This document shows positions 15,105 to 36,114 of a stretch of DNA of 64,000 nt, piece by piece. Source of the DNA: Dudresnaya verticillata (lineage: Eukaryota); contig OZ374562.1 in NCBI GenBank assembly GCA_977862235.1, positions 2,666,001 through 2,730,000 on the forward strand. Direction: 5' to 3'. The notes beneath the pieces were generated by a model. It was not told the DNA's origin. It saw nothing but the letters and a program-made list of their open reading frames with translations, and did no database searches. Both the position numbers and the translations under genes were made by a program. Positions within the stretch are counted from its first letter, which is position 1. Each line of letters starts with the position of its first letter.

Positions 15105-18100
15105 ATGGTAGATATCCACGTTGGTTCTCTTGGAAAGGAGATACGGAATACAAGACCAGCTCGCTTTTTTGTGGACATTGGGGCTCCAAAGTCTGTCGTA
15201 GGACGCAAAGAGATGCAGCGCATCCTTACTGCTGCAGGCATACATTCCCGAAGACTCATGCCCTCGCGCAACAGGTTTCGCTTTGCCGACGCCACGTACG
15301 AGTCACTCGGTCGCATTTCCATACCGCTGTTGACCCCACCAGGCATAACCAACATCGACGTTGAAATGAACATTGTCGAAGCCGACATCCCCGCACTTCT
15401 TGGCATGGACGTACTGGACAAACACTCCTTGACTCCATGCACTGTCTCGAACCAACTCATCAAGCGTACGAGACACACCGACAAAGAAGGGAAGCTGGTG
15501 CACCTCAACGAGTGGCAGGTGCCGTTGACCAGCTTTGGAAGCAACCACTTGTATGCTCAGATGCACTTTTCGACAGCCAGCTACTTCACGCGTCCACAGT
15601 TGCGAAGCCTTCACCGACAGTTCTTCCATGTAAGCGCACAGAAGCTGTACAATCTTATCAAGCGAGCACGTCCAGAGGAAGCTACACCTCAAACACTGGA
15701 AACTCTCAAAGACATCTCGAAACGTTGCGACCCGTGTCAACGAATACAACACGATCCTCATCGTTTCCGTGTATCGTTTGGTGCCGAAGACTTAAGATTC
15801 AATGAACTCATCCTCATTGACATCATGTCACTTGAATCAGCGCCTGTTCTCCACATCGTTGACGAAGCCACGAAGTTCAGCGCCGCACGATTCCCCCCTG
15901 ATGTGTCGACGCAGACGATCTGGAAAACCTTGATGTCATGCTGGGCTTTCGTCTACTGTGGACTTCCGAACAGGATTCTCACTGACCAAGGCTCACAGTT
16001 TGGACAACAGTTCATCCACATAGCCCAAGTCAAAACGTTTGAAGTCAACCGCACCGGCATTGAAGCCCACTCCAGTCTTGGACTGTGCGAGAGGTACCAT
16101 GAGCCGCTGCGAACGACATACCGCAAGCTCAGGCATGCTTATCCGCATGCAGGCAAGGAGATTCTTCTAGCTTCATCATTGAAGGCAATGAACGACACTC
16201 TTGGACCCGAAGTCCTAGTACCTTCTGCTCTTGTCTTTGGGGGATTTCCACAAATTGCCACCTTGTCTGAAGAACCCGGACCTCGACCCACGGTAGCTGA
16301 ACGCGCTTCTATTGCTACTGCTGCTCGTGAGGAGATGAAGAAGAGGATGGCTGAGCTCAAGGTCAGACGAGCTCTTCACTACGCTGTCCCACCTGCTTCC
16401 GAGCGCAGATATGAGCCTGGTGATCGCGTGCTTGTATTTCGCGAGAAGATCATTGCCAACCGCATTGGAGAATGGCTCGTACCTTTAGAAGTAGAATCGG
16501 TTGACTACTCCAAGAAGTTTGTGTTCATCCGAGACATCGAAGGAAGTCCCGCTCGGCCTTTCAGCGTCATGCAGGTGAAACCATACTTCACCCCCGAACT
16601 TCTTGCACAAACCTTCATGGCAGACATCGGCAAAAGTCTGAACCCGTTCAAGTCCCCGAAGATGGAAGAGGATGGGATATTCATGTCGGAAGTGCTTGAT
16701 CCGAACGATGAACGAGCCAAGCACTACGAGATGACTGAAGCCAAGAAGGTAGAACTCCGCAACTTCATGCAGCGCGGTACGTTCAAGGTGATACTCAAGG
16801 AAGACATCCCAAGAGACGCGAATGTTCTTCCAGGAAGATTTGTACTCGCGATCAAGTCCTCGCTGGACGGCAAGATCAAGTATAAGGCCCGATACGTCAT
16901 TGGAGGCCATCGCGAAAAGATGAAGGACATGATGGTGCACTCCACGACAACCTTGCAACCTCAGTCAGTAAGACTGCTTCTTGCGTTGGCAGGCATCTTT
17001 GGCTTTGACATCTGAACGGCAGATATCAGGCAAGCCTACCTTCAAGCTTCCGAACCATTGGCACGACACGTGTTCATCGGCAAGCCCGCTGCAGAGTTTG
17101 AACTTGAGCCTGACCAGTGTCTTCAACTCTTGAAGCCGTTATATGGACTATGCGATGCAGGAGATTTGTGGCATATCACACTTGACAAGCACCATCGCCT
17201 TGAGTTGGGAATGAAGCCGATGCGCATTGATCCCGCACTGTACTACCTGCTGAGTGAAGGAGTACTACAAGGCTTGAGTGGGTGCTATGCTGACGACCTG
17301 ATCCGCTGCGGAAGCGAAAAGTTTCGAAAACGCTCGCAGCAAACCAACGCACGCTTCGAGGTGACGGACGAGTCCAAGCTTCCAGCAGAGTTCACAGGAT
17401 TTGTCATCGATCGCGATAAGGATGGCACGATGTACATCGACCAGAACGCGTACCTCCGCAAGCTGGAATGTCTGCACCCAGATGCAACCTTTCGCGAATT
17501 CCGGTTCATGTGCATGAAGCTGGCATGGTTGTCTAACTCACGCCCTGACTGCCTTTTCGAAGTATCTCAGCTCGCACAAGTCACAGAGGAAGACTTCTTC
17601 AAGAACAGGCAAGCCAATATCCGACGTCTCAACAAGGCTGTAACGTACGCGGTTGACCATCGAGTCCGCCTACGCGTCCCAAGGTTGAAGGCAGACACCA
17701 TTAAGGTGATTGGATTCTCGGATGCCTCGTTCGCCAACAACAGGGATCTCAGTTCCCAGCTTGGCCACGTTGTGCTTCTCACTGACGACAGTGGATCTTC
17801 AGTCCCGGTCAGCTTCAAGTTGTACAAGTCAAGACGGGTGACTCGCTCAGCAATGTCCGGGGAAGTTATCGCATTCTCCGACATGTTCGACATCGCCATC
17901 GCCATCGCAGGTGAGCTTGGAGTTCTTCTCAACAAGACTGTCCCGGTCCAACTTCTAACCGACAGCAAGAGTCTCATCGACGTCATATCCAAAGGCTCCA
18001 GAACTTCTGAGAAGAGGATGACGCTTTACATCGCTGCGGCACGCGAAGGGTTCCGCGATAAGACGATCTCGGACATCGGGTTTGTCCGCAGTAGCTCCAA

Positions 18101-18206
18101 CATCGCTCATGGCTTGACAAAGATGATGAGTCAAGCACAGTTGCGAGAAGTTGTCGTTTCCGGTTCGCTAAACATTCAGCCGGAGCAGTGGATCGCTCGC
18201 AAATAG
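15105..18206 (+). pseudogene. pol: Copia pol (PR-INT-RT-RNase H), nonsense codon at 17013-17015
   Basis: FVDIGAPKS, LHRQFFH...CDPC, TDQGSQF, YKARYVIGGH, KPLYGL, YADDLI, FSDASFA, TDSKSL. Confidence 0.93.
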
Positions 18207-19799: not shown

Positions 19800-20465
19800 T
19801 TGTGGTCGATTCGTTCGTCCCTTCGAAGTCGGATGAGTAACAGCCAGATGGCTTATGGGGCCGTCGGTTCAAGCGTCGGTGTGCTAGGCGTGGACTTGGA
19901 CCATTTTGGCGTCCCCTTCTCCGTTAAGGAGAGTCACGACTGGAGGGTGCGCACCGACTTGGCGCACCTGAAAGCGCATGCTGGCGCTGACCGCACGGAT
20001 ATCCGCCGGCATGGAATGCGCAAGGCGCAGCGTCGCACGTGGTATTCGCATGCCCGTTCCCGCGTGAGCCTATTAACTTGATTAACTCGTGGTCTTCCCA
20101 CCCTCACGGGGCCGTGACAGTGGGATCTAGCACACCCGCGCTTCCGTCATGAGGTGCGCTATACAGCCGCCTTATGTAATAAGCTCAATTATGCTAGAAC
20201 AAATCCAACGCGTTCATGACGTTGGGGAATTCGACCTTGTTATTGTGGTACACGAGCGCCCGCTGATCCGCAGCGGCAGGGACAACTACCCTTACACCAC
20301 AGCCCCGGTTGTCCGTTGGGATGAAACTTCAAACTTCAAGTATGCCCCGGACAGCCCCCAAACGGCAATGCCGTCCGACTTAGTACGTTTCGAACGTCGT
20401 AACCGCCACCGCACCGGCTGTTTCGTGCCGGCGCATTGCCAAGAGGTTCTCTCTATCCGACCGGA
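19800..20465 (+). pseudogene. Gypsy-B antisense ORF, N-terminal part
   Basis: SHDWRVRTD and RFERRNRHRTGCFVP match the Gypsy-A and Gypsy-D ORFs. It continues in frame at 34464 once the DNA transposon is removed. Confidence 0.7.
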
Positions 20466-21585
20466 AACACTAATTTCGCCGGCTACAGAATTTCCAAAAC
20501 GGAACAGAATTTTTTGAGGGTCCTTGAATCCCGTCGTTCGATAGCGCGTTGGAAGGGGGCGCTACCGTGAGAATAGTGGTGCAAACAGATCGGAGCAAAC
20601 GCAAATAGTTTCGGAGTTATGCGCTCCGGCATATGGGCCCCCCCGGGGTCGAAAGTTCCCGAAAGTTGTGATTTTTCCGAAAAGTTCCAATTAAAAATTC
20701 TCCAGAAATTGATTCTGCCCCGTCCCGCCGCCCGCGCCCCCGCCCCCGACCGCACACCGCATTCTGGCGACTTCCCACCGCATTCCGACGTGCTCGGACT
20801 TGTCTTCCCACCGCATTCCGACGCGCGCTCGGCCACCTCCTCACGTTCGACAGCCACTCCCACCATCACCCTTCCTGGTGCTGCTACTGGCCCACACATT
20901 CGGCATTCCGGCGCGTGCGCACGCGCTCTGCTTCTGCCTTGCGCGTAATGAGGCGTGCTTCCCCATCCCCTCCCAGACCCGTAGTGCCGCTCCCCGCCCC
21001 AGTCCGGACTGTGACCGCGCTCTGTCTCACGTTCCCTGCCGTTCACCGACACCTCGCCGTCACCCTTCCCCGCGCTCCTGCGCACCGCGCCCGGCCGCAT
21101 TCTGACACGTCCACATCAAGTTGCCGCATTCGGGCGCACGGTCAGCCCCTCCCAGCAGTCTCCTGACACGCCTCCCTCACCCTTCCCTGCGCTCCTGCGC
21201 ACCGCGCCCGGCCGCATTCTGACACGTCCACATCAAGTTGCCGCATTCGGGCGCACGGTCAGCCCCTCCCAGCAGTCTCCTGACACGCCTCCCTCACCCT
21301 TCCCTGCGCTCCTGCGCACCGCGCCCGGCCGCATTCTGACACGTCCTCATCAAGTGCCCACATTCTGACGCACGGTCAGCCCCGCCCAACAGTCCCCCGA
21401 CAAGCCTCCCTCACCCCTACCTCGCTCCCGTGCGGCACGGGCACCCGCATTCTGACCCGGCCTCACAACTGGGCCCACAACCCGCCCGACCTGGTACACT
21501 ACCAGGTAGCTAAGCCGCTTGTGCACCCGCGGTTCGGACTTAGCTTGTGGCGTAGACGGGCGCTACAGGCGTCGAATGGTCTTGC
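20466..21585 (+). repeat. Left TIR (~1.1 kb) with 3 x 117-bp tandem units
   Basis: Reverse complement of 33303-34459. Units start at 21061, 21178 and 21295, with a partial unit at 21412. Confidence 0.93.
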
Positions 21586-21693
21586 ATTTCTCGTGTGCTG
21601 CATCAACCTGAGAGTAGAATTTACTGGTTGTAGCTGTTTCTCGTATCAAGATCCGGCATCTCTAACTAACAACAGCAATTCTCTGATTCTCTT

Positions 21694-24623
21694 CTAGACG
21701 AGCTGCGGTAGACTTCTCTTCGTAAGAGCTTCGAATTCGACCATTACGGTCGCGACGCCGACAGTACCAGTCCATGGCTGCTTAGTCGCTGAGTATATGG
21801 ATGTCTTGTACTTTCCGTCCCAAACACCCTTACCGTGATACGCCTCGTACCATCTTATATACAGCTCAGTAGCCTTTCCCGCAGCGTCCTGCACAACATC
21901 TAGAATCTGTCCAACCCAAAATGGGCATCGTGCGGTGGCGTTTTCCCTCACAACGGCAACGAAGTAGTTCTTCGTGTACTGCAGGTCTGGAGAGGGGGTC
22001 ACAGTCTCCTCCTCACCTTCATCTCCTTCCGGTACGTTCTCCAGCGCCGCTCTTCCGCTGTACTTTACCCTTGTCTCAAACATGTGCCCCATATCCCAAT
22101 GAAACGTTTCCAGCCTATCTCTGCCCACGTGGTCCCGCAATTCCTGCAGCTCCCTCATCTTTCCCGTGTCATTCACACGTGTATCTTCAGAACGAAACCT
22201 GTCGTTGACTTCCTTCAAATCTTGCGGCGATTTGACCACTGTTGCTGGGTTCTTGCCAAGGTCAGGAGGAGATAGTATGAACCCCTTATGCTCTCCTCCT
22301 GTCTGCAACGGAACCCAGTCATCCGCGCATGTCATTCTCAATTGACAGCCTGTCACGAAAGCTGCAACAGATTCTGCCTCTTCCGTCGCAGCTGGACCCA
22401 CACGGTGGAATCTGAAATAGCGATAGGTCGTGAATGCCTCAACATTACCAATGCATCCTTCCTGTCGACACAGGCCTGAGAAATTCGCAATTTGAAGCAT
22501 GCGACTGACAACTGGTTCTGGACTTTACGACTGCCGAAGCTCTTCCATCAATTCAGTCATTGTGACTGCGTCCCAAACTTTAAGCCGGCGTGCCGTGCAC
22601 GAAAAGGCCTGATCTATATCTTTGTGAGTGTGCCCGACAGGCAGGAAAGACACGAAGACCTCTTGGAACACACCCCATGCAACGAGACTCTCCAGGTATG
22701 AGAACAAAAAGGTATCTTTGTTCTCTCTCGAACAGTTGTCTACTTGTAGAAATAGAGTCCCTTGCAGCTCTCCTCTGGACTTTTTGCCCGAAAGTGTTCT
22801 GTGCAACGCCTCGATAATGTGGTTCGCGCCGGTCTCGAACTCACCGGTCATTGTGTACAAGTGCAGACGCTTCTCAGCCCTGTGTTCAAGCACCCCAATA
22901 AGTTTCGCTTTCATGGCATGCCCAATGCTGGCTTTGGACGACACCACAAAATGGGGAAGTCCAAATGCAGACTGATCAGCACCATCCACTATGAGGGAGC
23001 AATACTCTTGCGGCAATAGTATCGCCTTCTCACATTTTTTCTGATATTCACGTCTCTCTGCCTGTATGAATTTCAAGTGAATGTTGCGCCGCTCATGCAG
23101 GTGTTCAGTGCCTGCTCCAGAGGTCCCTGCCTGAGCAGGTCGCTCGCGAATGAGTTCGCATTCGCTGCACTTTGCAAATCGGTGTGTCTTTCGCACCTTA
23201 ATGCGTGAGCAACTGTGTTTCCATACAAAGTAAAAGTAACTCTGACACGGAATATCCCTGTTTCTGTACAGCCTGGTGTGGTCCAATTTGAAGATGTCGT
23301 ACACAACTGATTTCTGAAAGTAGGGGAGGTGTGACTCCCCATTATCGGGCATTGGTTCAGCAGTGCTGTCTGCAAGACGTTCAAGGAAGCAAATGATAGT
23401 ATCCTGCTGATGGGATGAGGTATCACGCCTCGCATTGTTTGGGAGTTGCAGCTTCCGGCACTGCCTCGTGCCTTTTACAGAGGTCTGTAAGTCGCGGGAG
23501 AATCCAAAGGCCTGCTCCAAAAAGCTGTAACAGACAGGCAGGCGGTTGAAAAAGTATTTCATCTTGCTCGTGTCCAACAGATTGCAAAGATACGTTCGCC
23601 TTGCTTCTACGTTCATTCCGGCAATTCTGCGCGCCTCCGCCTTTAATTACACTTGCTCCACACTTTGGAAGCACTTTTCCCGATGCAGCATCTCATTGAC
23701 TGTGTTTTTGCGCGTTCCAGTTCTTGGAAGAGGTGTTTACGTCTCTTCTGAAGACTTCCTCTCTCACTGAATGTCTGCTGCTTTCTCTTCCTGTAAGTAT
23801 ACTTTCGCTTCATCCTGACCTGCACCTTCCGAAAAGGGTCATACGCATCGTCATCACTTTCCAACACGGCGTCCGCATCATCATGGCTGGCCTCCCTCAA
23901 ATGCTCTCTCGGTTCACTCAATTCCTCACTGCTCGGAGCATTGCCAGGCGGGGGTGTTGTTCGAATTGACCGCGCTGCGGCATCCGCTTGCGTCCCCGCA
24001 CTTTGTGGGAGGGGTGATGCTGGCCTGGTCGCGTCAACTGGTGTCATCTGCTGGGGTGATGCCGTAGGGGCCACCGCTGCGGCAGTGTTTTCTGCAGTTG
24101 ACGTTGGGGGGCAATTGCTCAGTATTGGGTAAATTCTGCGACGAACTATGCCCTGTCGTGGAGAGTAAAACCATCTCTGGCACAACAGCGCGATTTCTCG
24201 ATTGCCGAGCTCCTGAATGTAGTTCACATCCCATGCATGAAAACCACCACCCATCTCCCCAAGTTTGTGCGGAACTGAGTCCGTTGTCTTGTACTTGTAT
24301 TTGTACTGAAGTTTCTCATACGGTTGCATGATTTGTGCTCGGTAAACCACAACCAGCTTCTCCCCTTTTTTCTGACTGGGAGACAATTTGTGGCCATGCA
24401 GGGTGCCACAATACCTGCCAGACTGGTCTGCGTCCTCTTTTATCCCCTGTCTCTTGACAATAGCAGTACCGACCATTTCCCTGTCATACAGAAGAGCAAC
24501 ACGCCCTTCATCGCGCGCGTTGCCTCCTCCTTTCTTTGCTTCATTTTCTCGCTCAGCACAATCCGTAGTTGACGGGCTCATTTCCATGTCGTTCAAAATG
24601 TATTTCCGCGACGGCATCTGCAC
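21694..24623 (-). pseudogene. Sola-like DDD transposase (~975 aa reconstructed; 1 frameshift, 2 stops)
   Basis: RCC..KCF, FAKCSEC...H, LIVDGADQ, LQVDNCSRENK, FLPVGHTHKDIDQAFS. ORFs 22525-23616 and 21694-22500 are in frame across a TAA. Confidence 0.85.
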
Positions 24624-25559
24624 CCAGCTTGTGAGAGTGCCACTCGTTCTGTCTTCCCTTCACGCTCTAAGCAGAGCGCCCGCTTTGCAGTCTGTTAAGG
24701 CACCTGGCCGACCTGGCGGGGAGGCGCAGCCCTTCGCAGCAAAACGCTTGCGCATTAAATACCCTCTGTGATACCGCGGCGGGCCGCCTGTTGCCTGCTC
24801 TTGAGGCTTCACACCCGTGGAGCTGCATGAGTGGCTACACGGTGTGCATCTGGGTTATCTTCTGCAACCCAGATTCTGTTTGTGATCAGATTCTGGTTCT
24901 GCACTTGGCCAATTACATTTCAGGACAAGTCTCCACATGCATGCGGAGCCACACAAGCTGCAGCTTCTGGGAGGCGGACACATACAGCTGACGGTCTCCG
25001 CAGCTTCTGAGAGGCGCTCTCTCAGCTGCTTTGCGATTCGATATGCGCGGTCATATGCTTCCCTGTAGCCCTCATTGTACGCCTTTGCTGCATACGCGCC
25101 CAACCCGTTGCCTCCTTCCTTGAAATAGTCTCGCGGTCCAAGAACAGGGACGCCCCATACCCATGCACTGCAGGAATGTTCAACGATTGGAAATCAGGGA
25201 CTCACCGCTTCAGGCCCGTCTTCTGATCCGGCTGCACCAACCCCATCTACCTCAACTCTGCGTCGTTTCAACCCAGCACAACTCGAGTATTATTTTGCGT
25301 TGTCAGCCAAGGCACCGATTTCATCCGCATCTTCGCCCTGCGTTCCAGACCCATCAACAACACGCGTTGCTCCCCTTCCCTGTAACCACTTGTCAGCACC
25401 AGCCGCCCTCAGCGCTGACTCAATATGCATCTCCTTCATCCAAAAGCCGAGGACCCTATCCAACCCACCAACAATGGGCTCTTCCTCATCTCCAGAGTAC
25501 ATGAGTACAGAAAGCCCGTGCTTCCCGAATCACCCGGCTCTGCCCACTCGGTGGCGGCA

Positions 25560-25988
25560 AAGTTCAACATCTCCCCGAGCGATGCCTACGGCCGCCGATG
25601 GATGCCTCCGGTTATTCCTGGCAATGCAGCACTGACATTTGAGATTGAGTTTGCAGACTTCAAGGGCGGCGGACGCGAAGATGTCAAGAAAGTCGCAGAG
25701 TTCAATCCTGAGGTGGCCAGGACTCCCATTGAAATTGCCACAGAATATGATGCCGGACTTGAAACGCAAGAGGAGCGAAGGAAGAACATGTCCTTGCTAG
25801 AACGCTTTTACCTCATGAGCCCATTTTCCAGCCGAACGGGAGAACGCCCGCCTTGGTGGAGCAATCCGATTATTACTTTCGTTGCAATAGCGGTGTTCTG
25901 TGCACTTGACTTCTATCCCGTTGTTGTAGCAGGTGGCATTCATGTGGGCTATGTTGATCAGCCTGTGTATGTGACCATCTTTAAGTAG
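25560..25988 (+). pseudogene. Captured fragment: C-terminal half of an FKBP-type peptidyl-prolyl isomerase with a hydrophobic tail
   Basis: ISPSDAYGRRWMPPVIPGNAALTFEIE matches the FKBP C-terminal signature. The N-terminal half is absent. Confidence 0.75.
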
Positions 25989-26269
25989 CCTTGCTTTTTC
26001 ACTGCTTTACTCCATGTAAATACTGTGCTAACTTCGTGTTGACAGAGAATGAAAATGCGTTTAGGCCAGGTGATGGTAACAATCGGGTGAGAAAGAAATC
26101 ACCCGAGAAAACGCAGCGCCTAAATCACTCAGTGCGAGGTCATGGGTTGATAACTCTCGCGCGACCTCGAGAAGCATTTCGCGACCGAATGCTTGTATCA
26201 TGGGAGCATTCTAGCCTTCTACCTCCTCTGTGAATCTTTCAAATCTGAGACGCTGCCCGGTCGCACATC

Positions 26270-27720
26270 CCGTGCCACCACGTATTACTCTTTCATCGAA
26301 GTAAGCGTTTAGAATTTGTTTTCGGGACTGGGAATGTGTTCTGCAGACTGAAATATCATTCTCGAAACGTCCTGGGCGGAGACGTGCATCATCCAGAAGG
26401 TCTAGGGGTCGCGTCGTCCCCGCAAGAAAAACAGGCTCACCCGAAGAACGGTTGTTGGTGCCGTCTATTTCGGTGAGAAATGTTCCCAGAATGCTATTGA
26501 ATGCTTAAGAAGCGGATTCCTCATCAGTGCAACCTACAGATGCACGACCACGACTCGGAGCGAGAAAATCGACATTCTCAATGACGATGACTGTTTAGAG
26601 TAGGGCCCTCGCTGTAGCGAACAGTTCTGATAGCCGTCTCTCACCATCGCCGACAATGCTGCTTATAATAGATGTGCCTTCAACGCATAGATTGTTTATG
26701 CTCCCATGGGTAACTGTCTGCGACGCCAGTCGCGCGATTGCGGACTTTTCAGATCCTGTTGCACCATAAGAGATTAAACACTTCCATATCCCTAGCGTTT
26801 GCAGTGCTTCCTGGCTGCTATCAGCCGAATGAGGGCCACTCCGAGCCCGAAGCACTGTTGTCAGACATTCTTGAAATCGCTTGATTGGCGAATCCAAGCC
26901 ATGCAAGGCCTTGATAAACTCAGGATCAAAAAGCTCGTCGGCTGGGGTTTCTTTCACGACCGACAGCAAGGATGCCTTTGTCATTTTGACGGAGCCCCAA
27001 AACTACGGAGCAGAAAGAAGGTCATGCGGTTCGAGCGAGGAATTCCTCGCTTAAGAATTGATCGTTGGTCTTCACCAGGCTCGTTCCAGTGTAGAGAACA
27101 AACTTGTCATGTCGCCATGCATGAACCCAGGTCTAACGACGGCAACCCTTTCTGCCATACGTCTCAAATCAGCATGGCTCTTGTTGCTAAAGATATTCGA
27201 GATCCAGTGGAGGGACAGTTTCCTCCTCTCGATGAATGCAAGTGCATGCAAACTGATCACTTCCGATGTACGCTTGCAACCAAATAAACTCGGGCATACA
27301 TCCTGTTGATTAAGTGCAGTAGTAATAAAGACTACAGGGATATGGCTTTCGTCATGCAATGCGGAAAGCTCTTCACGGAGTGCAGCAACGAATTAGTTCG
27401 CTTAAGCGAACGTCACGGGATGACAAAAGTTTGGCTGGTGCCCATACGTCGAGCACACCAATAAGGATTGCAACTGGGACACAAGCAGTACTCAGCATAG
27501 ACTCATTACCAAATATATCGTTTTCAAGACCAACAGCTTCCGAGAAAGGTTCCGAAATAGCACCTCCTATGAACCCAGCATCATCAACTGCTATAACTCT
27601 TGGACACGAGCACACTACCCAAACGCCGGCGAAACGTGCCCCTTGTGCAGCAAGTGTAATATTCCTTGATGCGGAAGTCTTTCATGCGGCAGTCCAGAGC
27701 ACTTGAATGGCTAGAGGTGA
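26270..27720 (-). pseudogene. Captured, decayed AAA+ ATPase (CDC48-family-like)
   Basis: Degenerate Walker A YGATGSEKS, SIISSIVGDGERRLSELFATAR, VIVIENVDFL, FLTEIDG and SRH LDDARLRPGRFE (~26360-26400). Confidence 0.75.
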
Positions 27721-29064
27721 CCTGCGTACCGCTTGTAGAATGCCAATGAGTTCTGGACACGATAAGGGAATGATGAATATGAATAGCAAGCGAGGGCTAT
27801 GGGAGCATCTGAGAGACGTGCGGTTGTCCAATACGACGATCACGGCTCGCATTTAAACGTTTTTCGGTTCGGGAAGGGGTTGGGAGCAATAATACCATGA
27901 TGACCATGATGACAGGCTGAATGATGGCAGGCTGAATTATGGTTTTCAAGGCAAGCGAGAATTTGCGTGTCAGAAGCGAACGTAGGACGGTAAGCAGGCA
28001 GGGAAGCACAACGGCGGTATTACGCAGCGGAGAGGAAGGGGAGTGGAGGAAGATACCGTGAGTGATGGATTCGCGGGGCGGGAGTCGTCGTGGAGAGGGT
28101 AACGGCGTTTGTGAGGCAGTGTGTTTTGGCAGTCATTCTTGTGTCCGCATTCTGGGAATTCATCTCGTGAGCTCGCAGCGCCGAGGCCAGATAGATTGTG
28201 GAGTTTGCGGGCTCTCAGGACCTGTTCCCCGATACTGATATTGCACTTTGGGCTCCTGCGTTCCCGTGAAGCGCAATATCTGTTCTCATAGCAATGTGAC
28301 TTGGCCGCATTCAGAAGCTGTAAAGGTGTTGACGGCGGCCCCATGGAAAGACCCTTTTACAAGCTTACTCAATATCATTGGACAGAAAATCTATACAGGT
28401 AGCGCGCAATTTGCCACATCAAATGAACAGCTATTTGGCCCGGCGCTCTCGCCCTACCTGTTCCCTGATACTGATATTGCACCCACAGGTGTTGACACCT
28501 CCCACCCCCGAGAACCTATTCCTCGTAAATTGACCGCGGCTCCCCCGCTGGCACGGCGCTGGAAACGGTGTGCCAGTACTCACCGAAACCGTGTGTGGCA
28601 TGCTAGTTTACTCGCAGTATCAGCACCTGGCCAGGCCGGCCTCAACTTCAAAGCCCAGCCAAGTCGGCTGGGACAGCAAGCAGCATGCCCTAATTGACTT
28701 TGTTACATCTCGCCCTGCAGGTCCGGTGAAACCTGCATTCTGCCAATTCCAACTGTACGGCCTGTGCTAAGAATAGTTCTGATGGAGACTGCCCACACCC
28801 GGTGAACAATCCACGTGACCTCCCGTGCCATCTCAGAATTTGCGGCACATCCATGTCGTACTCCCGCCGTCCAGTTTGTCGAAAGCCCGTATGGTGTCAG
28901 TCGAAAACGGCACCCGGCAAACATGAGCTGGGGACGTAAAGAACTTCTTGCGGAAGGTTTTCTGAACAGAATCTGGACAACTCGTCGGACATGCAGTACC
29001 CCTTTCCGTACTCTTTCAAGGAGAGCGGTTTTCACGTGCACAGTGAATCTTTCTCTCGCACACC

Positions 29065-32000
29065 ATGTCGAAGCGCAAGAAGCGGAGCAGGGGCTCAAGT
29101 GAGCCCTTGAGGAAGGAGGAGATGGCACAGGCACTGTTTGGAGATGTCATGGAGGGGTCTACCAACATTCGAATAGACCCCAGGTCCTGTGTTCCGATGA
29201 CTGATATAAGGGAATCTCGAGATCCGGTGTTTAGAGGCTCAAGAAGATTTTCAGGGGTGGTGGGACGAGGAGTGGTAACTACAACAACGGGTACATTGCA
29301 GGTTCTGATGCGCCCATACTGGCTCGCCTAACGGGTCCCTTCAGGAGTTTAATTTTTGAGTTTCTACGAGCTAAATGGAATGCGGATGGGACAGAGTACA
29401 CAGAGAAACAGGTGAAAGAAGAGGCCTCCAGTCGGTCGGAGTGGTTCGGAGTTGTTGATGGCATGCATAGACTTATCAACATTATGGAGCTAATCGATGA
29501 AGACCGGGAGACATGGAAGGGGTTTGCTTTGACTGCCACTGTGCTTAAGGGGGGCACAACATCCAGATTCTGAAGCAACTGGCTCGTCATCAGAACAGAA
29601 AGCACGACTCCAGCTTTTTGTAGAGATCACGTTTTACGATCAGATATGCGGTCTGAGGAAAGAGGCAGACCGTCTCGAAGCCAGTAATGGGAAGACTCCG
29701 ACTGCGACGGCAGTTGCCGAAGCATGTGATGGATGCAGTCACCTATCGTAAAACACTATCAAACAGACAGCGGCAACCGTTCTTCGTCTTGACCGTCGCG
29801 TTATCGATGTAATTGGGAAGATAATGAAGGAGGAGGTCCCTGAACTAACAACTATACAACTGTTGACTGCTTCCGGAAAGGCCATAGACTCAAATGTTGC
29901 GATGCAGAATCTGGATTGCAGAGTATACAGACGCTTCATTCACGTCAGTTCCATCAAGTCTTCCAAGGCCTTTATGAATGCAGGCAGCTCTGATAACGGC
30001 ATTACTGTTCAAATAGCTACCCTGTACAGGCTTCGAGAGGTGTCAAGGACACACAATTTCAAACCTATTTCGGCCAAACACACGCAAGAGCAATTCGTGA
30101 AAGCTTCAGCCGCCCTTTCCGAGACTCGGAAGTTTGAAGCGATGAGGGAGAGGACAGAATGGCCGTCAGGCATGAGTACATTAAGAGAAAACCTGTTACA
30201 GACTACAAAGCTGGACGTCGAGGTCATCATGAATCGAGGTAATGACCGTACACTGTTGAAAACAATAGTTGAAATGTACAGAGAGTGTTGTCCGGAAGAG
30301 GCCCCAGTGAAGTTGCAGAAGTACAAAGATCTGCAAACTGTGATGGATTCGACAGAAGGCAGACGTGATGACGCTGTCATGACCCGCCCGGGTTCCAATG
30401 AATGTGGAGCAAAAGATTCTGACGGTCAACAGAATTTGGACTGCACGTTGTCACCGCAGGTGGACGCTACCGGAATCTGTAACGACGACGAGGTTTTAGC
30501 CTTAGTAACATCAACCAATTCGAAAAGGGCAGAAGGTCGCTAACCAGCAGAATCTGTACAGGCACCCGTCCAGAACGCATACCCTAAAGCTGCATGTGCA
30601 GCCAAATACCTTTCTGTACCGGAAAAGAGTCCCACAGACCCCATTGTATCAACTGTGTCATCAAAGCAGTCTGTTCGCCTCAACATGGGTACTAAGCCTG
30701 TGCCGGTGGAGGACGGATCGCTTTCTGTTCCAATAGATTATCTTGCGGAAATGAAACTGACATGCTTTCAGATGATATGGCAGAGCTACGACAGTACCGT
30801 AAGGAAGGAAGGTGACAAACGATTCGATTTCATCCTCACTGATCCACCATACGGTACACCGAAATCGCAGTCTAAGTCGGGGAGGTCATTCGATAATTAC
30901 CTCAGCGAGGAAGACATTAAGAATATAGTTGAGTTCTCGAGGCGCGTACTTGTAGCAGGGGGTGGTTGTTTGTTTTCACGTCATTCCTGAACGCCAGTGT
31001 ATTCCACGATGCTATGAAGAAGGCACAATTCATGTGCCCAGCATACCCATTCGTATTCTCCAAAAACCCCAAGACCATGCAGGAACATCGGGGGAGCGAT
31101 ATGCCCCAGAACTGCGTGGAAATAGCTGTCATGGCGCGTGCCCCAGGTCAGCATGGCAGAGGGTTCTCGCTCGACCTTAGGAGCGAGTATCACTGCATCC
31201 CCTCCCCAGAAAAGCGGAAATTCGCGTGCATGTCCTCTCTACCAACACCAAAACACAAGTTGCTACGCCCAGGCATCAAGTCCCCAGTTCTGGTCGAAGA
31301 GAAGTCTCCCAAAGTACTTGTGGAGATAATGACAACATTCTGTCCGGAGGGCGGGTCAGTTCTGGATATGAACAGCGGAACCATGACGACTGGGATTGCA
31401 GCTCTCAGAACAGATCGTCGGTGTACACTAATCGAATCACAGGTCGAAACATTCAAGCTGGGGGCTGAACGTTTGCGTAGGCTTGCCACGGAAGCATATG
31501 AAATGAAGACAGATCGTAAACGTTTGGAATCAAGTGCTCATGACGAAATGAATGGTATCGGTGAGGCAGCAAGAGGTAGTGTTGTCAAAACAGATTCTGG
31601 TCAACCAACAAACCATTCCGTAACAAGGAAGGGACCTGAAATGTCCCATCTGACGACACCGTCCGAGCACGTATTGGATGACCCCGAAGAGAGTATCGAG
31701 AAGCACGGCAGGAGTGAAGACACAGTTGTAGGAAGTGTGGAGCTGAATGAAAAGTGCAGGAGAAGGAAAAAACCTGAACCTTGTGCAATGCCCAAGGCCG
31801 GAGACAGAATCACGCTTCTTGCAGATGATAAGGAAGTGGAGGAGGCCGTGTTGCATCCTGAAAAGACTCCAGGAGGGAATTGGAATGAACGCTTGCACGG
31901 CCACGATCTGTCAGAATCTGCCAAACCAGGGGAGCATCTTGTGGTCGTGTACAGTTTGAAGGTCATGGCGGAGTATGAGCTAAGTTCGTATCCGTATATA

Positions 32001-32093
32001 TTCAAGGGAGTAGAGGACCCTCCTGCCAATCTCAAGGGCCTAAACGGCTTGTTGTTCTCGTGGGACTTGCACAACATGAAGAAGATTGGGTAG
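29065..32093 (+). pseudogene. ParB/Srx domain + HTH + beta-class DNA amino-methyltransferase (DPPY) + C-terminal domain shared with the transposase; ~1000 aa, several frameshifts and stops
   Basis: VVDGMHRL at 29451-29474. HTH-like KTPTATAVAEA..G.S near 29690-29790. FDFILTDPPY (DPPY at 30841-30852) precedes EKSPKVLVEIMTTFCPEGGSVLDMNSGTMTTGIAA...IE. Confidence 0.85.
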
Positions 32094-32601
32094 GAATTAT
32101 AGTCAGTACAGTACTATTGCCATAGGCCGAATTGAACATTTCTCGAGCATCCCTATTCTGAACATGTCTTTGCGTCTTGCTTCCGCCATGGTCCATGAAT
32201 TCGACGTCATTCAGGCACCATTTACTCGAATAACGCCAGTGCTTCCACGTGCCGTACTATGAACGCGGGGGTTATATTTGGTCCACCAAACAGAATCTGT
32301 CACGGAAGGCTGTCGCGAGTGTGGCACATGTACCGTACTGCTGCAGCTGTTGGCAACGTTGCGGCATATTGGCAGTAAGTGATTGATCGACTACGTACCG
32401 GAGTGCGCCCAGGGCTGTCTCCAACGCATATGAAATGGACACCCGTGAGCTCGTGGAAAGATGGACCATGTATTGTCCAGGCACGCAGTGATCCTGTCGC
32501 AGTTAAAGGCCTCGGCCATTTCGGAAAGAGAGCTGAGATGAAACGAAGTTTTCGTTCACCACCATAATCTGCTGTGACCAGAATACCGCTGTATTGAGAC
32601 C

Positions 32602-33123
32602 TTGGATGACTTGATTCTGGATGTGGAAAAGCTGTACAACGCCGTTAAACGTCGGATGGAGGAAGATCTTAATCGTGAGGCACGAAATTGGACGCACCAA
32701 AGCCCTAGCAGTGACGACGACATTCTAGACAACCACAATGACGTGGATCGTGCCCAAATGGCTTGGGAATCATCACAGCAATTTTACGCAGGTAAGACGA
32801 TGATGGAGCATTCCCACCATCAGAAAGCTTTGGAAAAATTGTACAGGTTGTTGCTGAAGAAAATCTTTCTCGTGGGAAGGGTCAAGTACGTACACGGTGC
32901 AGCCCATGCTATAGACTTCGCGATTGTCGAAACGCTGCACAGGGGCGGAGAGAACTCGTATCAACTGGACCGCTACACACGTCTGCTTTGCACCAAATTC
33001 TACATGTCCAACAGCCGCGCAATGAAACCGGAGGTGAGGATGTGCATCATGAGGAGCCTGAGCAATGAACTGTCTAGTTGTGAAGGGCTGTATATGCGGA
33101 AGCATGATAGCAGCGATTGCTAA
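32602..33123 (+). CDS. Hypothetical protein inside the DNA transposon
   Basis: 173-aa open frame with protein-like composition. No motif recognised. Confidence 0.35.
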   Translation: MDDLILDVEKLYNAVKRRMEEDLNREARNWTHQSPSSDDDILDNHNDVDRAQMAWESSQQFYAGKTMMEHSHHQKALEKLYRLLLKKIFLVGRVKYVHGAAHAIDFAIVETLHRGGENSYQLDRYTRLLCTKFYMSNSRAMKPEVRMCIMRSLSNELSSCEGLYMRKHDSSDC

Positions 33124-33302
33124 CTTTAGAGATAGTAAATTGGTGGCCTTCTCCCACGAGCACAGCAATGCGCTTCATTCCATTTGGCGGCCTACAATCG
33201 GGGATGTGCCCCATTGAAGTATGGCATGGTCCTCAGCTGCGGCGCAATAAACGCGGCGCAGACAACAGAATGCAATGGGGTCAGGCTGGCATTGTGCAGA
33301 AC

Positions 33303-34459
33303 CGCAAGGGAAATCGACGCCGGTAGTGTCAGTCTACGTCACAAGTTAAGTCCGAACCGCGGGTGCGCAAGTGGCTTAGCTACCTGGTAGTGTACCAGGT
33401 CGGACGGGTAGTGGGCCCAGTTGTGAGAACGGGTCAGAATGCGGGTGGCCGTGCCGCACGGGAGCGGGGTAGGGGTGAGGGAGGCGTATCGGGGGACTGC
33501 TGGGTGGGGCTGAACATGCGTCAGAATGCGGGCACTTGATGAGGACGTGTCAGAATGCGGCCGGGCGCGGTGCGCAGGAGCGCGGGGAAGGATGAGGGAG
33601 GCGTGTCGGGGGACTGCTGGGAGGGGCTGACCATGCGCGCGAATGCGGCAACTTGATGTGGACGTGTCAGAATGCGGCCGGGCGCGGTGCGCAGGAGCGC
33701 GGGGAAGGGTGAGGGAGGCGTGTCGGGGGACTGCTGAGAGGGGCTGACCGTGCGCCCGAATGCGGCAACTTGATGTGGACGTGTCAGAATGCGGCCGGGC
33801 ACGGTGCGCAGGAGCGCGGGGAAGGGTGACGGCGAGGTGTCGGTGAACGACAGGGAGCGTGAGACAGAGTGCGGTCACAGGCCGGACTGGGGCGGGGAGC
33901 GGCACTACGGGTCTGGGAGGGGGTGGGGAAGCGCACCTCATTACGCGCAAGACAGAAGCAGAGCGCGTGCGCACGTGCCGGAATGCGGAATGTGTGGGCC
34001 AGTAGCAGCACCAGGAAGGGTGATGGCGGGAGTTGCTGTCGGACGTGAGGAGGTGGCCGAGCGCGCGTCGGAATGCGGTGGGAAGCCAAGTCCGAGCGCG
34101 TCGGAATGCGGTGGGAAGACAAGTCCGAGCGCGTCGGAATGCGGCGGGAAGTCGCCAGAATGCGGTGTGCGGTCGGGGGGCGGGGGCGCGGGCGGCGGGA
34201 CGGGTCAGAATCAATTTCTGGAGAATTTTTAATTGGAACTTTTCGGAAAAATCACAACTTTCGGGAACTTTCGACCCCCGGGGGGGTCCATATGCCGGAG
34301 CGCATAACTCCGAAACCATTTGCGTTTGCTCCGATCTGTTTGCACCACTATTCTCAGGGTAGCGCCCCCTTTCCAACGCGCTATCGAACGCCGAGATTCA
34401 AGGACCCTCAAAAAGTTCTGTTCTGTTTTGGAAATTCTGTAGCCGGCGAAATTAGTGTT
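33303..34459 (-). repeat. Right TIR (~1.15 kb)
   Basis: Inverted copy of the left TIR, with one extra ~31-bp unit near 34060-34140. Confidence 0.93.
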
Positions 34460-34463
34460 CGGA

Positions 34464-36114
34464 GTTTTATAGGGTCAAGTACCCTCAAATCGCCGGGGAC
34501 CACACGGACCTTGAAGTGTCCTACTCCATGCCAGTGGGGACGCCCACCATCGTAGCCTACCTTGGCTTGGAGATGATGGACGGTCACGCAGACGAGAGTT
34601 TCTTGTGGTCGATATGCCGCGACGAATGGATCGTCCTGGTGACGCAGGTGTTGGTGTACGAAGCCCGTCGGGGGCTGCTGTATTTCATCAATTCCCGACT
34701 TCGAGGGGCCATCCGCACTATAGGCGCATCTGCCTTTTGCGCCACCGCGGAGGATGCTCAGGACCTGGACCAACTCTTGCTATATGTAGAGCGCATTCGC
34801 TGGAGCGGCATTTCAAAGCGCAATAGGCACTTGCCTGAGAATACCGGCCACGTGACGCCTGTATACGACCGCGGCGACTGGGTAGACTTCGACGCCGCCA
34901 AGTGGCACTCAGTCCTTCCGGACTACCTAATGGCCCCTATACCCGAAGAGAGTGAGTCCATCTTATTGGATGAGTGCGAGCGTCGGTCTGGTTATACCAG
35001 GGGGTGTGTCAGCGTCCCCTGCCGGGATGAAGGGCCTAAACACCCTGATGCCGTGCCTCCCTTCGACGACTCTGTGGACGGGGACCCTCAGGGGCCGTAC
35101 GTCCCAGTATTGACTCACCACCATCGAGCCGACAGTGAGATCCGAGATCTATTTGGACGTCGTGGCTTAGCCATCCGGCTCGCTGCCCATTGGGGTATCT
35201 ACTCCGTCAACCTTCACAGTCTCGCTGACTGGGTTGAGGAGGTCCTAGCCGAGTATGAGGCTCACTGGGTTGGGACACCGGGTCCCATTGACCGCCTTTT
35301 GACTCACCTGAATAAGTTGCCCCCGCTGGGCGGGGTCAAGGTTAAAGTTGAGCCTGGAGTGAAGATCAAGAAAGAGGCGGACTCTAAGGTCCGCCGCGGC
35401 ATCGGCTACGGTAAGCCGGGTACTTCTGCCCAGGGCTCTTCTGGTGCCATTCTAGCGCCAGGTGCTCGTGAAGCTATTGAGGATAACGAGTCTAAGATTC
35501 CGAGCGAAAAGCCTTTGGCTGGGGCTTCCAGCGAGGGTGGAACTGCCGGGCCGCCGGCTGCGGCAAATATATCATCCATGGCTCAGCCATCGGCTTCTCG
35601 AGTTGGCGTCCCTCTGCGCTCCGTGCTTCCAGGCACCGTGCCTACTTCCACCGTGGCGCCATCCGGGCCGTTGCAGCCGAATCCGCCTGCTACCAGCGAG
35701 GTATTGAAGGCTTCGTCAGGGCTAGGCCCTACAGTAGCGCCGCCGCCTATGCCGGGTCAGGCTGAGCTGCCTTTAGGTGCAGCCGAGGAGGTTTCCTCGG
35801 CGCCGACGAGCGATGAGCCGAAGGCTAATGACGACTTGATCGTCAAAACGGAAGTGGTCCTCAAGGAGGAGGAGGAGTTGGAGCCTAATGAGGGCGGAGG
35901 TGTTGCACCTATAGCCGCGCCTATGGACGTTGAACTTCCAGCCAGTGAGGCTCGTGGTGCCACAATGGAGGGTATGCGCCGAGGCCGCGGTCCGCGTCGT
36001 GGTCAAGGTCGGCTAATTGTTCGCGGAGTTCGTCGCATCGTGTCGGCACAAGCTCCCGCGGCTCCGAACCCGCCTCTTGACGGAGATGAAGTCATTGACC
36101 TTCTCTCAGATTAG
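34464..36114 (+). pseudogene. Gypsy-B antisense ORF, C-terminal part
   Basis: TPTIVAYLGLEM...LWSICRDEWI...GDWVDFD followed by an Ala/Pro/Glu-rich tail. Confidence 0.75.

Follow-up and report, generated by a model that had tools for sequence, protein, structure and literature searches.

The window analysed here is a stretch of 64,000 nucleotides from Dudresnaya verticillata (GenBank assembly GCA_977862235.1, contig OZ374562.1, positions 2,666,001 to 2,730,000), and all coordinates below count from its first letter. Within it lies a transposon of 13,994 bp, at 20466-34459, which carries two genes between its inverted ends: a transposase of the DUF7869 DDE type on the minus strand and a long methyltransferase gene with a PF01555 catalytic domain on the plus strand (Table 1). 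This copy of the element is decayed, and both genes are broken by frameshifts and stops. The subject of this work is a stretch of about 100 amino acids, predicted to form a small beta-barrel and called the barrel in what follows, which occurs near the N-terminus of the transposase and again at the extreme C-terminus of the methyltransferase.

When the two open reading frames (ORFs) concerned were compared by BLASTP, residues 41-140 of the ORF at 23643-24623 (minus strand) aligned with residues 281-375 of the ORF at 30966-32093 (plus strand), with 34 of 100 amino acids identical, 52% positives, 5 gap positions and a score of 63.9 bits (E 7e-16). Searched by tblastn against all six frames of the window, each domain retrieved solely its counterpart (E 2.7e-14), and the next match lay at E 0.019. 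The Smith-Waterman score of the pair was 149, as against a mean of 26.3, a standard deviation of 4.45 and a maximum of 47 in 2000 shuffles of one partner (z 27.6). These comparisons indicate that the transposase and methyltransferase stretches are homologous. A first-pass annotation made from the letters of the window had noticed the likeness, and both the likeness and its position hold up, the pairwise statistics being clearly significant. The annotation also placed the domain at the correct ends of the two proteins, the barrel being found at the true N-terminus of the transposase gene and at the C-terminus of the methyltransferase. Its reading of the genes themselves fell short: the ORF quoted as the transposase is only the N-terminal piece of a gene broken into three ORFs, and the methyltransferase gene, which contains frame changes, is far longer than the ORF quoted for it.

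The transposase was delimited by its relative P0007 (978 amino acids), of which residues 14-975 aligned to the gene by tblastn. The reading frame shifts near 23676, and in-frame stop codons interrupt the gene near 23649 and at 22525-22527. The Pfam DUF7869 match scored 135.7 bits against a cut-off of 26, and we conclude that the protein is a DUF7869 DDE enzyme, dead in this copy. DUF7869 was the sole transposase family found by Pfam in 20 of 20 relatives; no other transposase family appeared in these 20 at E up to 10, a search in which HMMER filters discard weak matches. A profile of 20 transposases found no RAG1 or Transib chain among solved structures and returned low-complexity matches only, and the name DUF7869 was not found in the literature searched. 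The C-terminal 268 amino acids of the transposase (21694-22500, minus strand) are conserved in most relatives and match no Pfam family, and a faint BAH match (E 0.14) was seen in one relative; this part may form another small barrel, opposite the N-terminal one.

For the methyltransferase, the 967-residue relative P0150 aligned over its residues 19-963 in four pieces, from 29137 to 32081 (tblastn). Frame changes lie near 29211, 29555-29587 and 30960, and one in-frame stop falls inside 29208-29555. Introns were considered as the cause of the frame changes and rejected: the relatives are single uninterrupted ORFs and the aligned pieces abut or overlap, and the interruptions are therefore lesions. 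The Pfam N6_N4_Mtase match covers residues 112-164 of its ORF. The two ORF pieces of the window score 18.9 and 15.2 bits against PF01555, short of the 26.7-bit cut-off because a frame change divides the gene, and intact relatives exceed that value (P0001, 51.9 bits; P0150, 60.2; P0155, 57.5). The closest solved sequences are the adenine methylases DpnA (E 7e-13) and CcrM (E 1e-5), with the N4-cytosine enzyme PvuII at E 0.47. Motif IV reads DPPY rather than SPPY, which we take to point to adenine as the target.

The N-terminal region of the methyltransferase was modelled on residues 1-400 of the relative P0233 (8 sequences; predicted local distance difference test score, pLDDT, 80.1). The model resembled ParB, Noc and KorB (Foldseek probability 1.00, E 3.5e-4 to 1.5e-3) as well as sulfiredoxin (probability 0.99), and a VDG-x-HR motif of the DGxHR type, which is ParB/sulfiredoxin-like, is visible in the methyltransferase alignment. 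At the level of sequence the region gave only a weak match to DndB (E 0.014), and its profile found no match among the sequences of solved structures; the likeness to ParB came from the fold search. Given the ParB/Noc/KorB fold at its N-terminus, the protein is therefore laid out as a ParB-like region, a methylase and a barrel. The second gene encodes a ParB-like and PF01555 amino-methyltransferase whose closest solved relatives are adenine-specific.

The inverted ends of the element are about 1.1 kb long, with arms 94-98% complementary. They open with AACACTA, with CACTA running from the third base and TAGTG at the opposite end, and the inverted repeat thus reaches 2 bases (AA/TT) beyond these. 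The 4-bp CGGA found at both flanks is a putative target-site duplication, for which chance would account 1 time in 256 in this single element. The motif CCGCATTCYG matched 19 times in the window, with 0.41 matches expected, and 17 of these are subterminal and in inverted orientation (7 on the plus strand at the left end, 10 on the minus strand at the right). The two copies beyond the subterminal arrays are both on the plus strand, one within the element at 28145-28154 and the other at 14322-14331, 6 kb to the left of it. These features fit the EnSpm/CACTA-Mirage-Chapaev (CMC) group, for which CA or CAC termini and target-site duplications of 2-5 or 3-4 bp are given in the available portions of two papers (PMC12730594; PMC4079192).

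Table 1. Features of the transposon and its two genes, in coordinates of the window.
Feature	Position	Strand	Details
Left putative target-site duplication, CGGA	20462..20465		Directly outside the maximal inverted repeat
Left terminal inverted repeat	20466..21591	+	Starts AACACTAATTTCG; CACTA at 20468-20472; 117-bp tandem array at 21060-21479
Subterminal CCGCATTCYG motif, seven copies	20757..21454	+	Motif count in the window
Transposase gene (DUF7869 DDE type), pseudogene	21694..24623	-	ORF pieces 24623-23643, 23616-22525 and 22500-21694
Pfam DUF7869 (PF25273) match	22528..22920	-	Profile positions 7-136 of 192, truncated by an in-frame stop; E 1.9e-39
Shared barrel domain, transposase copy	24204..24503	-	ORF residues 41-140; BLASTP, tblastn, shuffle test, AlphaFold2 model
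Long methyltransferase gene, pseudogene	29065..32093	+	ParB-like N-terminal region, PF01555 catalytic domain and barrel
ParB/sulfiredoxin-like stretch	29137..29555	+	Aligns to P0150 residues 19-147
Catalytic motif IV, DPPY	30841..30852	+	Translation of ORF 30655-30990; conserved in 6 of 6 aligned relatives covering the motif
S-adenosylmethionine-binding motif I region, VLDMNSGT	31359..31382	+	Downstream of motif IV, the permuted (beta-class) order
Shared barrel domain, methyltransferase copy	31806..32090	+	ORF residues 281-375, extreme C-terminus; BLASTP, tblastn
Right terminal inverted repeat	33298..34459	-	117-bp array at 33424-33843; 33-bp repeats at 34063-34151; ten CCGCATTCYG at 33435-34165
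Right putative target-site duplication, CGGA	34460..34463		Directly outside the maximal inverted repeat

To describe the barrel beyond this locus, a profile of the two sequences was run against 1.84 billion representatives and returned 87 proteins at E<=0.001, of which 2 were repetitive false matches; Pfam N6_N4_Mtase was present in 16 of the 46 profile matches scanned for it. A second-round profile marked the barrel in 94 of 204 collected proteins. Of the 94, 20 are methylases with the barrel at the C-terminal end and 18 are DUF7869 transposases with an N-terminal barrel, and the remaining 56 match neither enzyme and are mostly shorter than 260 amino acids and fragment-like. The opposite placement, with the barrel at the N-terminus of a methylase or the C-terminus of a transposase, was found in zero of the 94. 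The barrel belongs to no Pfam family that we could detect: when 62 members were scanned singly at E up to 1, no family appeared in more than 2 of them. Likewise, the only match of the barrel profile among the sequences of solved structures was meaningless (E 0.85). The first-pass annotation had likened the pattern to the Tnp1/TnpA-associated domain of En/Spm accessory proteins, a likeness that found no support, with none of the 62 members matching such a Pfam family at E up to 1. These searches define the barrel as a domain family, as yet without a name, whose size is at least about 90 proteins.

Three proteins, P0130, P0187 and P0194, show a third architecture in which an N-terminal barrel precedes a region that is similar in all of them. 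The P0130 version of this region has an IDGRHR motif like the ParB-type motif of the methylase N-terminus; the match between the ParB-like region of the methylase and P0130 was not significant (hhalign E 0.21).

The AlphaFold2 model of the barrel (m83b7cb980018), built on the alignment of 62 sequences, had a pLDDT of 85.8 and a predicted template modelling score of 0.78, and consists of five main strands and one short helix. Its best match among 48,161 chains compared by VIA-align was the Pex13 SH3 domain (Z 4.6, root-mean-square deviation [rmsd] 3.1, 64 aligned), and none of these chains reached Z 5. Chromobarrel, Tudor, KOW, retroviral integrase C-terminal and KorB C-terminal domains followed at Z 3.4-3.7. 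Foldseek matches in the PDB were weak (best E 0.19; ribosomal eL27 and SH3 domains), and viral models in BFVD gave no meaningful match (best Foldseek E 0.67). The structural lists favour no family, as chromo, Tudor, KOW, integrase C-terminal and KorB C-terminal domains and the C-terminal domain of CcrM appear in them alike. We call the predicted fold SH3-like and nothing more specific.

Beside the hydrophobic core, the family keeps a signature of seven columns, H47, Y78, P79, Y80, P89, W102 and D103 in the numbering of the modelled stretch. W102 is retained in 62 of 62 members, P89 in 60, D103 in 59 and H47 in 58, and the signature is alike in methylase barrels (21), in the transposase clade of the window (3) and in the other transposase clade that carries the domain (12). 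The transposase barrel of the window deviates from the consensus in two of these columns, as expected of a decayed copy. No conserved column holds a basic residue in the 62 members. The barrels are mostly acidic, with a median isoelectric point (pI) of 5.7, a pI above 8 in 10 of 62 and a mean net charge of -4.2 among the methylase barrels, which speaks against binding to the DNA backbone. The two barrels of the window differ in this respect, at pI 9.3 for the transposase and 5.2 for the methylase. A prediction of the two barrels as a complex scored 0.01 (mark 0.34); it made no use of alignments and the fold of the partner was uncertain in it, and it counts neither way.

The barrel looks constant in the methylases that we compared. 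P0001, found with the ORF of the window, is 37% identical to it over 99% of its length, barrel included, and the barrel was present in 3 of 3 long methylase relatives found with a query that lacked it. The domain is thus a regular component of the methyltransferase among its relatives, in agreement with the first-pass annotation.

Its distribution in transposases is patchier. Among the matches listed, 12 of 120 transposase relatives carry the barrel, and at least 90 of the 120 have an N-terminal extension of 100 amino acids or more without it. A tree of 123 transposases places the carriers in two clades, clade A with 12 of 13 rows (support 97) and clade B, which includes the window, with 3 of 9 rows (support 99); a further clade of 86 rows contains no carrier. 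The one barrel-less row of clade A, P0113, has its source and contig size (4580) in common with P0175, a barrel fragment that neighbours it in the barrel tree; the barrel there simply stands on a separate ORF. Absences called at the level of ORFs are soft, since this one proved to be a split ORF.

In the tree of the barrels themselves (105 columns, midpoint root), those of clade A are separate and those of clade B, the barrel of the window among them, lie among the methylase barrels (Shimodaira-Hasegawa-like approximate likelihood ratio test [SH-aLRT] 89). We infer, with weak support, that the barrel may originally have belonged to the methylase/ParB-like protein and later been copied to transposases of two clades, perhaps twice. 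The two barrels of the window are 34% identical to each other and 37-40% identical to barrels from elsewhere; with no greater likeness within the pair than to outsiders, no recent exchange or concerted evolution within the element is seen.

The association of the two genes appears to recur outside the window. Three pairs of a methylase and a transposase come from the same source and from contigs of equal size: P0150 and P0013 (8751), P0233 and P0015 (8109), and P0148 and P0029 (17291). Linkage elsewhere was judged solely by this equality of contig size, and the number of such matches expected by chance at 8 kb or more, estimated from near misses, is 0.0075. The methylases P0150 and P0233 are related to each other, and their respective partners P0013 and P0015 are sister transposases. 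A further candidate pair, P0183 and P0039 (4334 bases), was dropped as a chance match, the two genes together needing about 6 kb. Metagenome contigs and viral contigs, each scanned twice, gave pattern matches and confirmed the locus of no relative. The data support the methylase as a recurrent partner of DUF7869 transposases. To this extent the first-pass annotation was right to call the methylase an integral gene of the element and not passive cargo, with the three linked pairs and a 2025 preprint discussed below in its favor; the co-evolution that it also supposed is not reflected in any concerted evolution of the two barrels.

Elements of this kind are already known, because the 2025 preprint describes methylase- and ParB-bearing EnSpm elements of red algae. 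The comparisons with published systems that follow draw on those portions of the sources that were available. The red-algal EnSpm/CACTA elements named Plavaka are giant and carry the accessory genes PAG1-3, of which PAG2 combines PF01555 with SET and PAG3 a ParB-like domain with a 2-oxoglutarate (2OG) oxygenase, and the ParB-like PAG protein has been proposed to bind the repeats of its own element (bioRxiv 10.1101/2025.02.11.637652). Like them, the element of the window appears to be a large member of the EnSpm superfamily, and it has a PF01555 methylase gene between its ends, a ParB-like domain and tandem arrays, and its decay matches the degenerate state of most Plavaka copies. PDB entry 7BNR, the best match of the ParB-like domain in the preprint, ranked 5th for our model of P0233, and P0131, the nearest neighbour of the transposase barrel of the window, has a source label naming a red alga. 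The layout differs from that of the PAG genes in that the ParB-like region, the methylase and the barrel form one protein here, and no SET or 2OG-oxygenase match was found in 6 long methylases (E up to 1) or in the scanned ORFs of the element. In the available text of the preprint the words SH3 and chromodomain do not occur, although its supplementary figures may show more, and its section 8 describes no domain common to the transposase. Another red alga is credited in an older review with enlarged En/Spm families of 4-5 ORFs, and a red-alga genome paper counts 66 PF01555 genes.

Methylases fused to small barrels, and mobile elements with DNA-modification enzymes, are known elsewhere in eukaryotes. 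N4CMT of bdelloid rotifers (PMC8885841) is likewise a eukaryotic enzyme of the bacterial, permuted PF01555 type with a small beta-barrel at its C-terminus. It is a host gene with a recognisable HP1-type chromodomain and makes N4-methylcytosine, whereas the methylase of the window is a transposon gene with a barrel of no known family and a catalytic domain nearest to adenine methylases. The fungal TET/JBP transposons, which include EnSpm/Plavaka lineages, are cut-and-paste elements that regularly carry a DNA-modification gene as an accessory, and their clade has 5'-CA..TG-3' termini and target-site duplications of 2-5 bp (PMC12730594). Their enzymes remove or oxidise methyl marks, unlike the methyltransferase found here, and in the portion of that paper at hand no domain common to transposase and accessory protein is described. 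Retrotransposons with an adenine methylase (bioRxiv 10.64898/2026.05.21.726589) are again eukaryotic mobile elements with a prokaryotic-type enzyme, and sometimes also have chromodomains. They differ in that the enzymes are of the Dam type, and the available text contains none of the terms N6_N4, PF01555, CACTA, EnSpm or transposase.

Among classical elements, maize En/Spm has CACTA termini, inverted arrays of short subterminal motifs, two proteins, TnpA and TnpD, that act on its ends, and a target-site duplication of 3 bp. The element of the window has CACTA close to its termini and shares the inverted subterminal arrays and the encoding of two proteins. It departs from maize En/Spm in that its second protein is a methyltransferase, in its target-site duplication of apparently 4 bp rather than 3, and in its barrels, 0 of 62 of which match Transposase_23/24-type Pfam models. 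Chapaev/CMC elements are described with target-site duplications of 3-4 bp and CAC..GTG termini, similar to ours except that in the window two bases of the maximal inverted repeat precede the CAC (PMC4079192). In the literature searched on CACTA, Chapaev and Mirage elements and on cargo methylases, exclusive of the supplements of the bioRxiv preprints, we found no domain common to a transposase and a methylase. While the kind of element is known, we found no earlier description of the shared barrel or of the fusion of ParB-like region, methylase and barrel.

We favor a reading of the barrel as a common docking module for a protein or chromatin partner rather than as a binder of the DNA backbone, and put its probability at roughly 40%. 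By binding a protein or peptide ligand, the barrel would gather transposase and methylase at one common partner, a protein or chromatin, situated at the element or close to it. Repeat-specific binding would be left to other parts, in the methylase to the ParB-like region and in the transposase to a cysteine-rich region of its own. The DNA of the element would be marked by the methylase, most likely with N6-methyladenine, and the mark might serve escape from silencing or the timing of transposition. We prefer this reading because the nearest shapes are peptide-binding barrels, because the barrel is acidic and has no conserved basic residues, because the ParB-like and cysteine-rich regions are better suited to the repeats, and because a terminal reader barrel is thought to bring the rotifer PF01555 methylase to chromatin. 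Both suggested roles of a methyl mark have parallels elsewhere. Dam methylation times the transposition of bacterial IS10. For the Dam-carrying retrotransposons, escape from silencing has been proposed in the portion of the preprint available (bioRxiv 10.64898/2026.05.21.726589).

The first-pass annotation had suggested instead a DNA-binding or dimerisation module that would couple the methylase to the transposase or to the repeats of the ends. In its DNA-binding form this would mean sequence-specific binding of the barrel to the CCGCATTCYG arrays, to which both proteins would be brought. The 17 inverted copies of the motif in the element ends offer a target, the end-binding domain of transposases is commonly N-terminal, as the barrel is here, and the barrel of the window's transposase is itself basic; C-terminal SH3-like domains of retroviral integrases also stand among the structural neighbours (Rous sarcoma virus integrase 4fw1, Z 3.6, rmsd 3.1, 53 aligned). 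Across the family the picture is different, given the low median pI and negative charge of the methylase group, a pI of 8 or less in 52 of 62 members and conserved columns that are free of basic residues. Most N-terminal extensions of the listed transposases are without a barrel, so the family must recognise its ends by other parts, and in the methylase the ParB-like region already supplies a fold of a known DNA-binding type. We consider DNA binding by the barrel quite unlikely. Another alternative is a role in oligomerisation, with which the retention of the same signature residues in both proteins would agree: the barrel could join methylase and transposase as a hetero-dimer, or each to itself, and the methylase would thereby be drawn into the transposition complex. 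Transposases work as multimers, and ParB-family proteins are dimerised by their C-terminal domains. The N-terminal region of the methylase is ParB/KorB-like, and the KorB C-terminal domain, presumably its dimerisation domain, is among the neighbours of the barrel (1igq, Z 3.4, rmsd 3.6, 54 aligned). That match is no better than those to dozens of unrelated SH3-like barrels, and the linked methylases accompany transposase ORFs without the barrel; the modest identity of the window's own two barrels and the gap between their pI values are neutral as to pairing. On balance oligomerisation seems unlikely to us.

Closer to docking, and overlapping with it, is the idea that the barrel reads a modification, either a histone mark or the DNA product of the methylase itself, in which case the transposase would work on chromatin marked by the methylase of the element or by the host. 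The conserved Tyr, Tyr, Trp, His and Asp of the signature resemble the make-up of an aromatic cage. The structural neighbours include chromobarrel and Tudor domains (RBBP1 2lcc, Z 3.4; PHF19 6wau, Z 3.5), and the bdelloid N4CMT offers a PF01555 methylase with a C-terminal chromodomain (PMC8885841). These structural scores are not above background, and 0 of 62 members match the Pfam models for chromo, Tudor, PWWP or MBT domains, which leaves a reader function rather improbable in our view. More specific still, and a long shot, the barrel may read the mark of its own methylase or a chromatin state linked to it, with the transposase cutting or inserting only where the methylase has acted. If true, a eukaryotic DNA transposon would here possess a self-marking system that distinguishes its own or permissive DNA from the rest. 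Finally, the two barrels may have no function in common, the domain having been duplicated between the genes by recombination in an ancestral element and persisting by descent. Ectopic exchange is easy between two genes of one element, and the transposase apparently manages without the barrel. We think this very unlikely, as the signature is kept across methylase and transposase barrels that are only 25-40% identical and the barrel is kept throughout a transposase clade of 13 members, both of which point to purifying selection in either setting.

Several observations weigh against the docking module. This copy is dead, and no statement on function at this locus can be drawn from it. The transposase ORFs of the three linked pairs (P0013, P0015 and P0029), as called, begin with Met and are without the barrel, as are 6 of the 9 members of the window's own transposase clade, and the transposase therefore may not need it. 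The structural matches are weak, all of them at Z below 5, a range that the tool itself calls common, and the fold for this reason says little on function. In the transposase clade to which the window belongs the barrels are basic (2 of 3 with pI above 8), unlike those of the methylases, and the ligands of the two may differ. The direction of transfer from methylase to transposase rests on one branch (SH-aLRT 89) of a tree of 105 columns rooted at its midpoint.

DNA-modification enzymes on mobile elements are a recent theme, with the TET transposons of fungi, the Dnmt and Dam retrotransposons and the PAG genes of red algae. The appeal of the barrel lies in its fixed positions in the two proteins of an element and in the conserved residues that these have in common. 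It provides a concrete handle on how modification enzymes are tied to the transposition machinery, since it can be expressed and can be removed from either protein. The present work defines an unnamed domain family and a fusion of ParB-like region, methylase and barrel that is distinct from the published PAG layout. The copy described here is a fossil with no function of its own.

Further ORFs were found in and around the element. Short ORFs between the two genes, at 25425-25988 (plus strand) and 26595-26984 (minus strand), weakly resemble the final part of an FKBP domain (E 0.00097) and an AAA ATPase (E 0.009); these FKBP- and AAA-like pieces may be captured fragments of host genes or chance matches. 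A 173-residue ORF downstream of the methylase and within the element (32602-33123, plus strand) has no Pfam match and may be a further accessory gene. Just outside, 57 bases past the right end of the element, begins a 532-residue ORF rich in Pro, Ala and Ser (34516-36114, plus strand), likewise without a Pfam match. The surroundings are rich in repeats, and remains of long terminal repeat retrotransposons were identified at 53261-58741 (minus strand), 6427-8743 (minus strand) and 15105-18206 (plus strand), comprising two sets of Ty3/gypsy type (RVT_1, RNase H, integrase) and one of copia type (RVT_2, rve).

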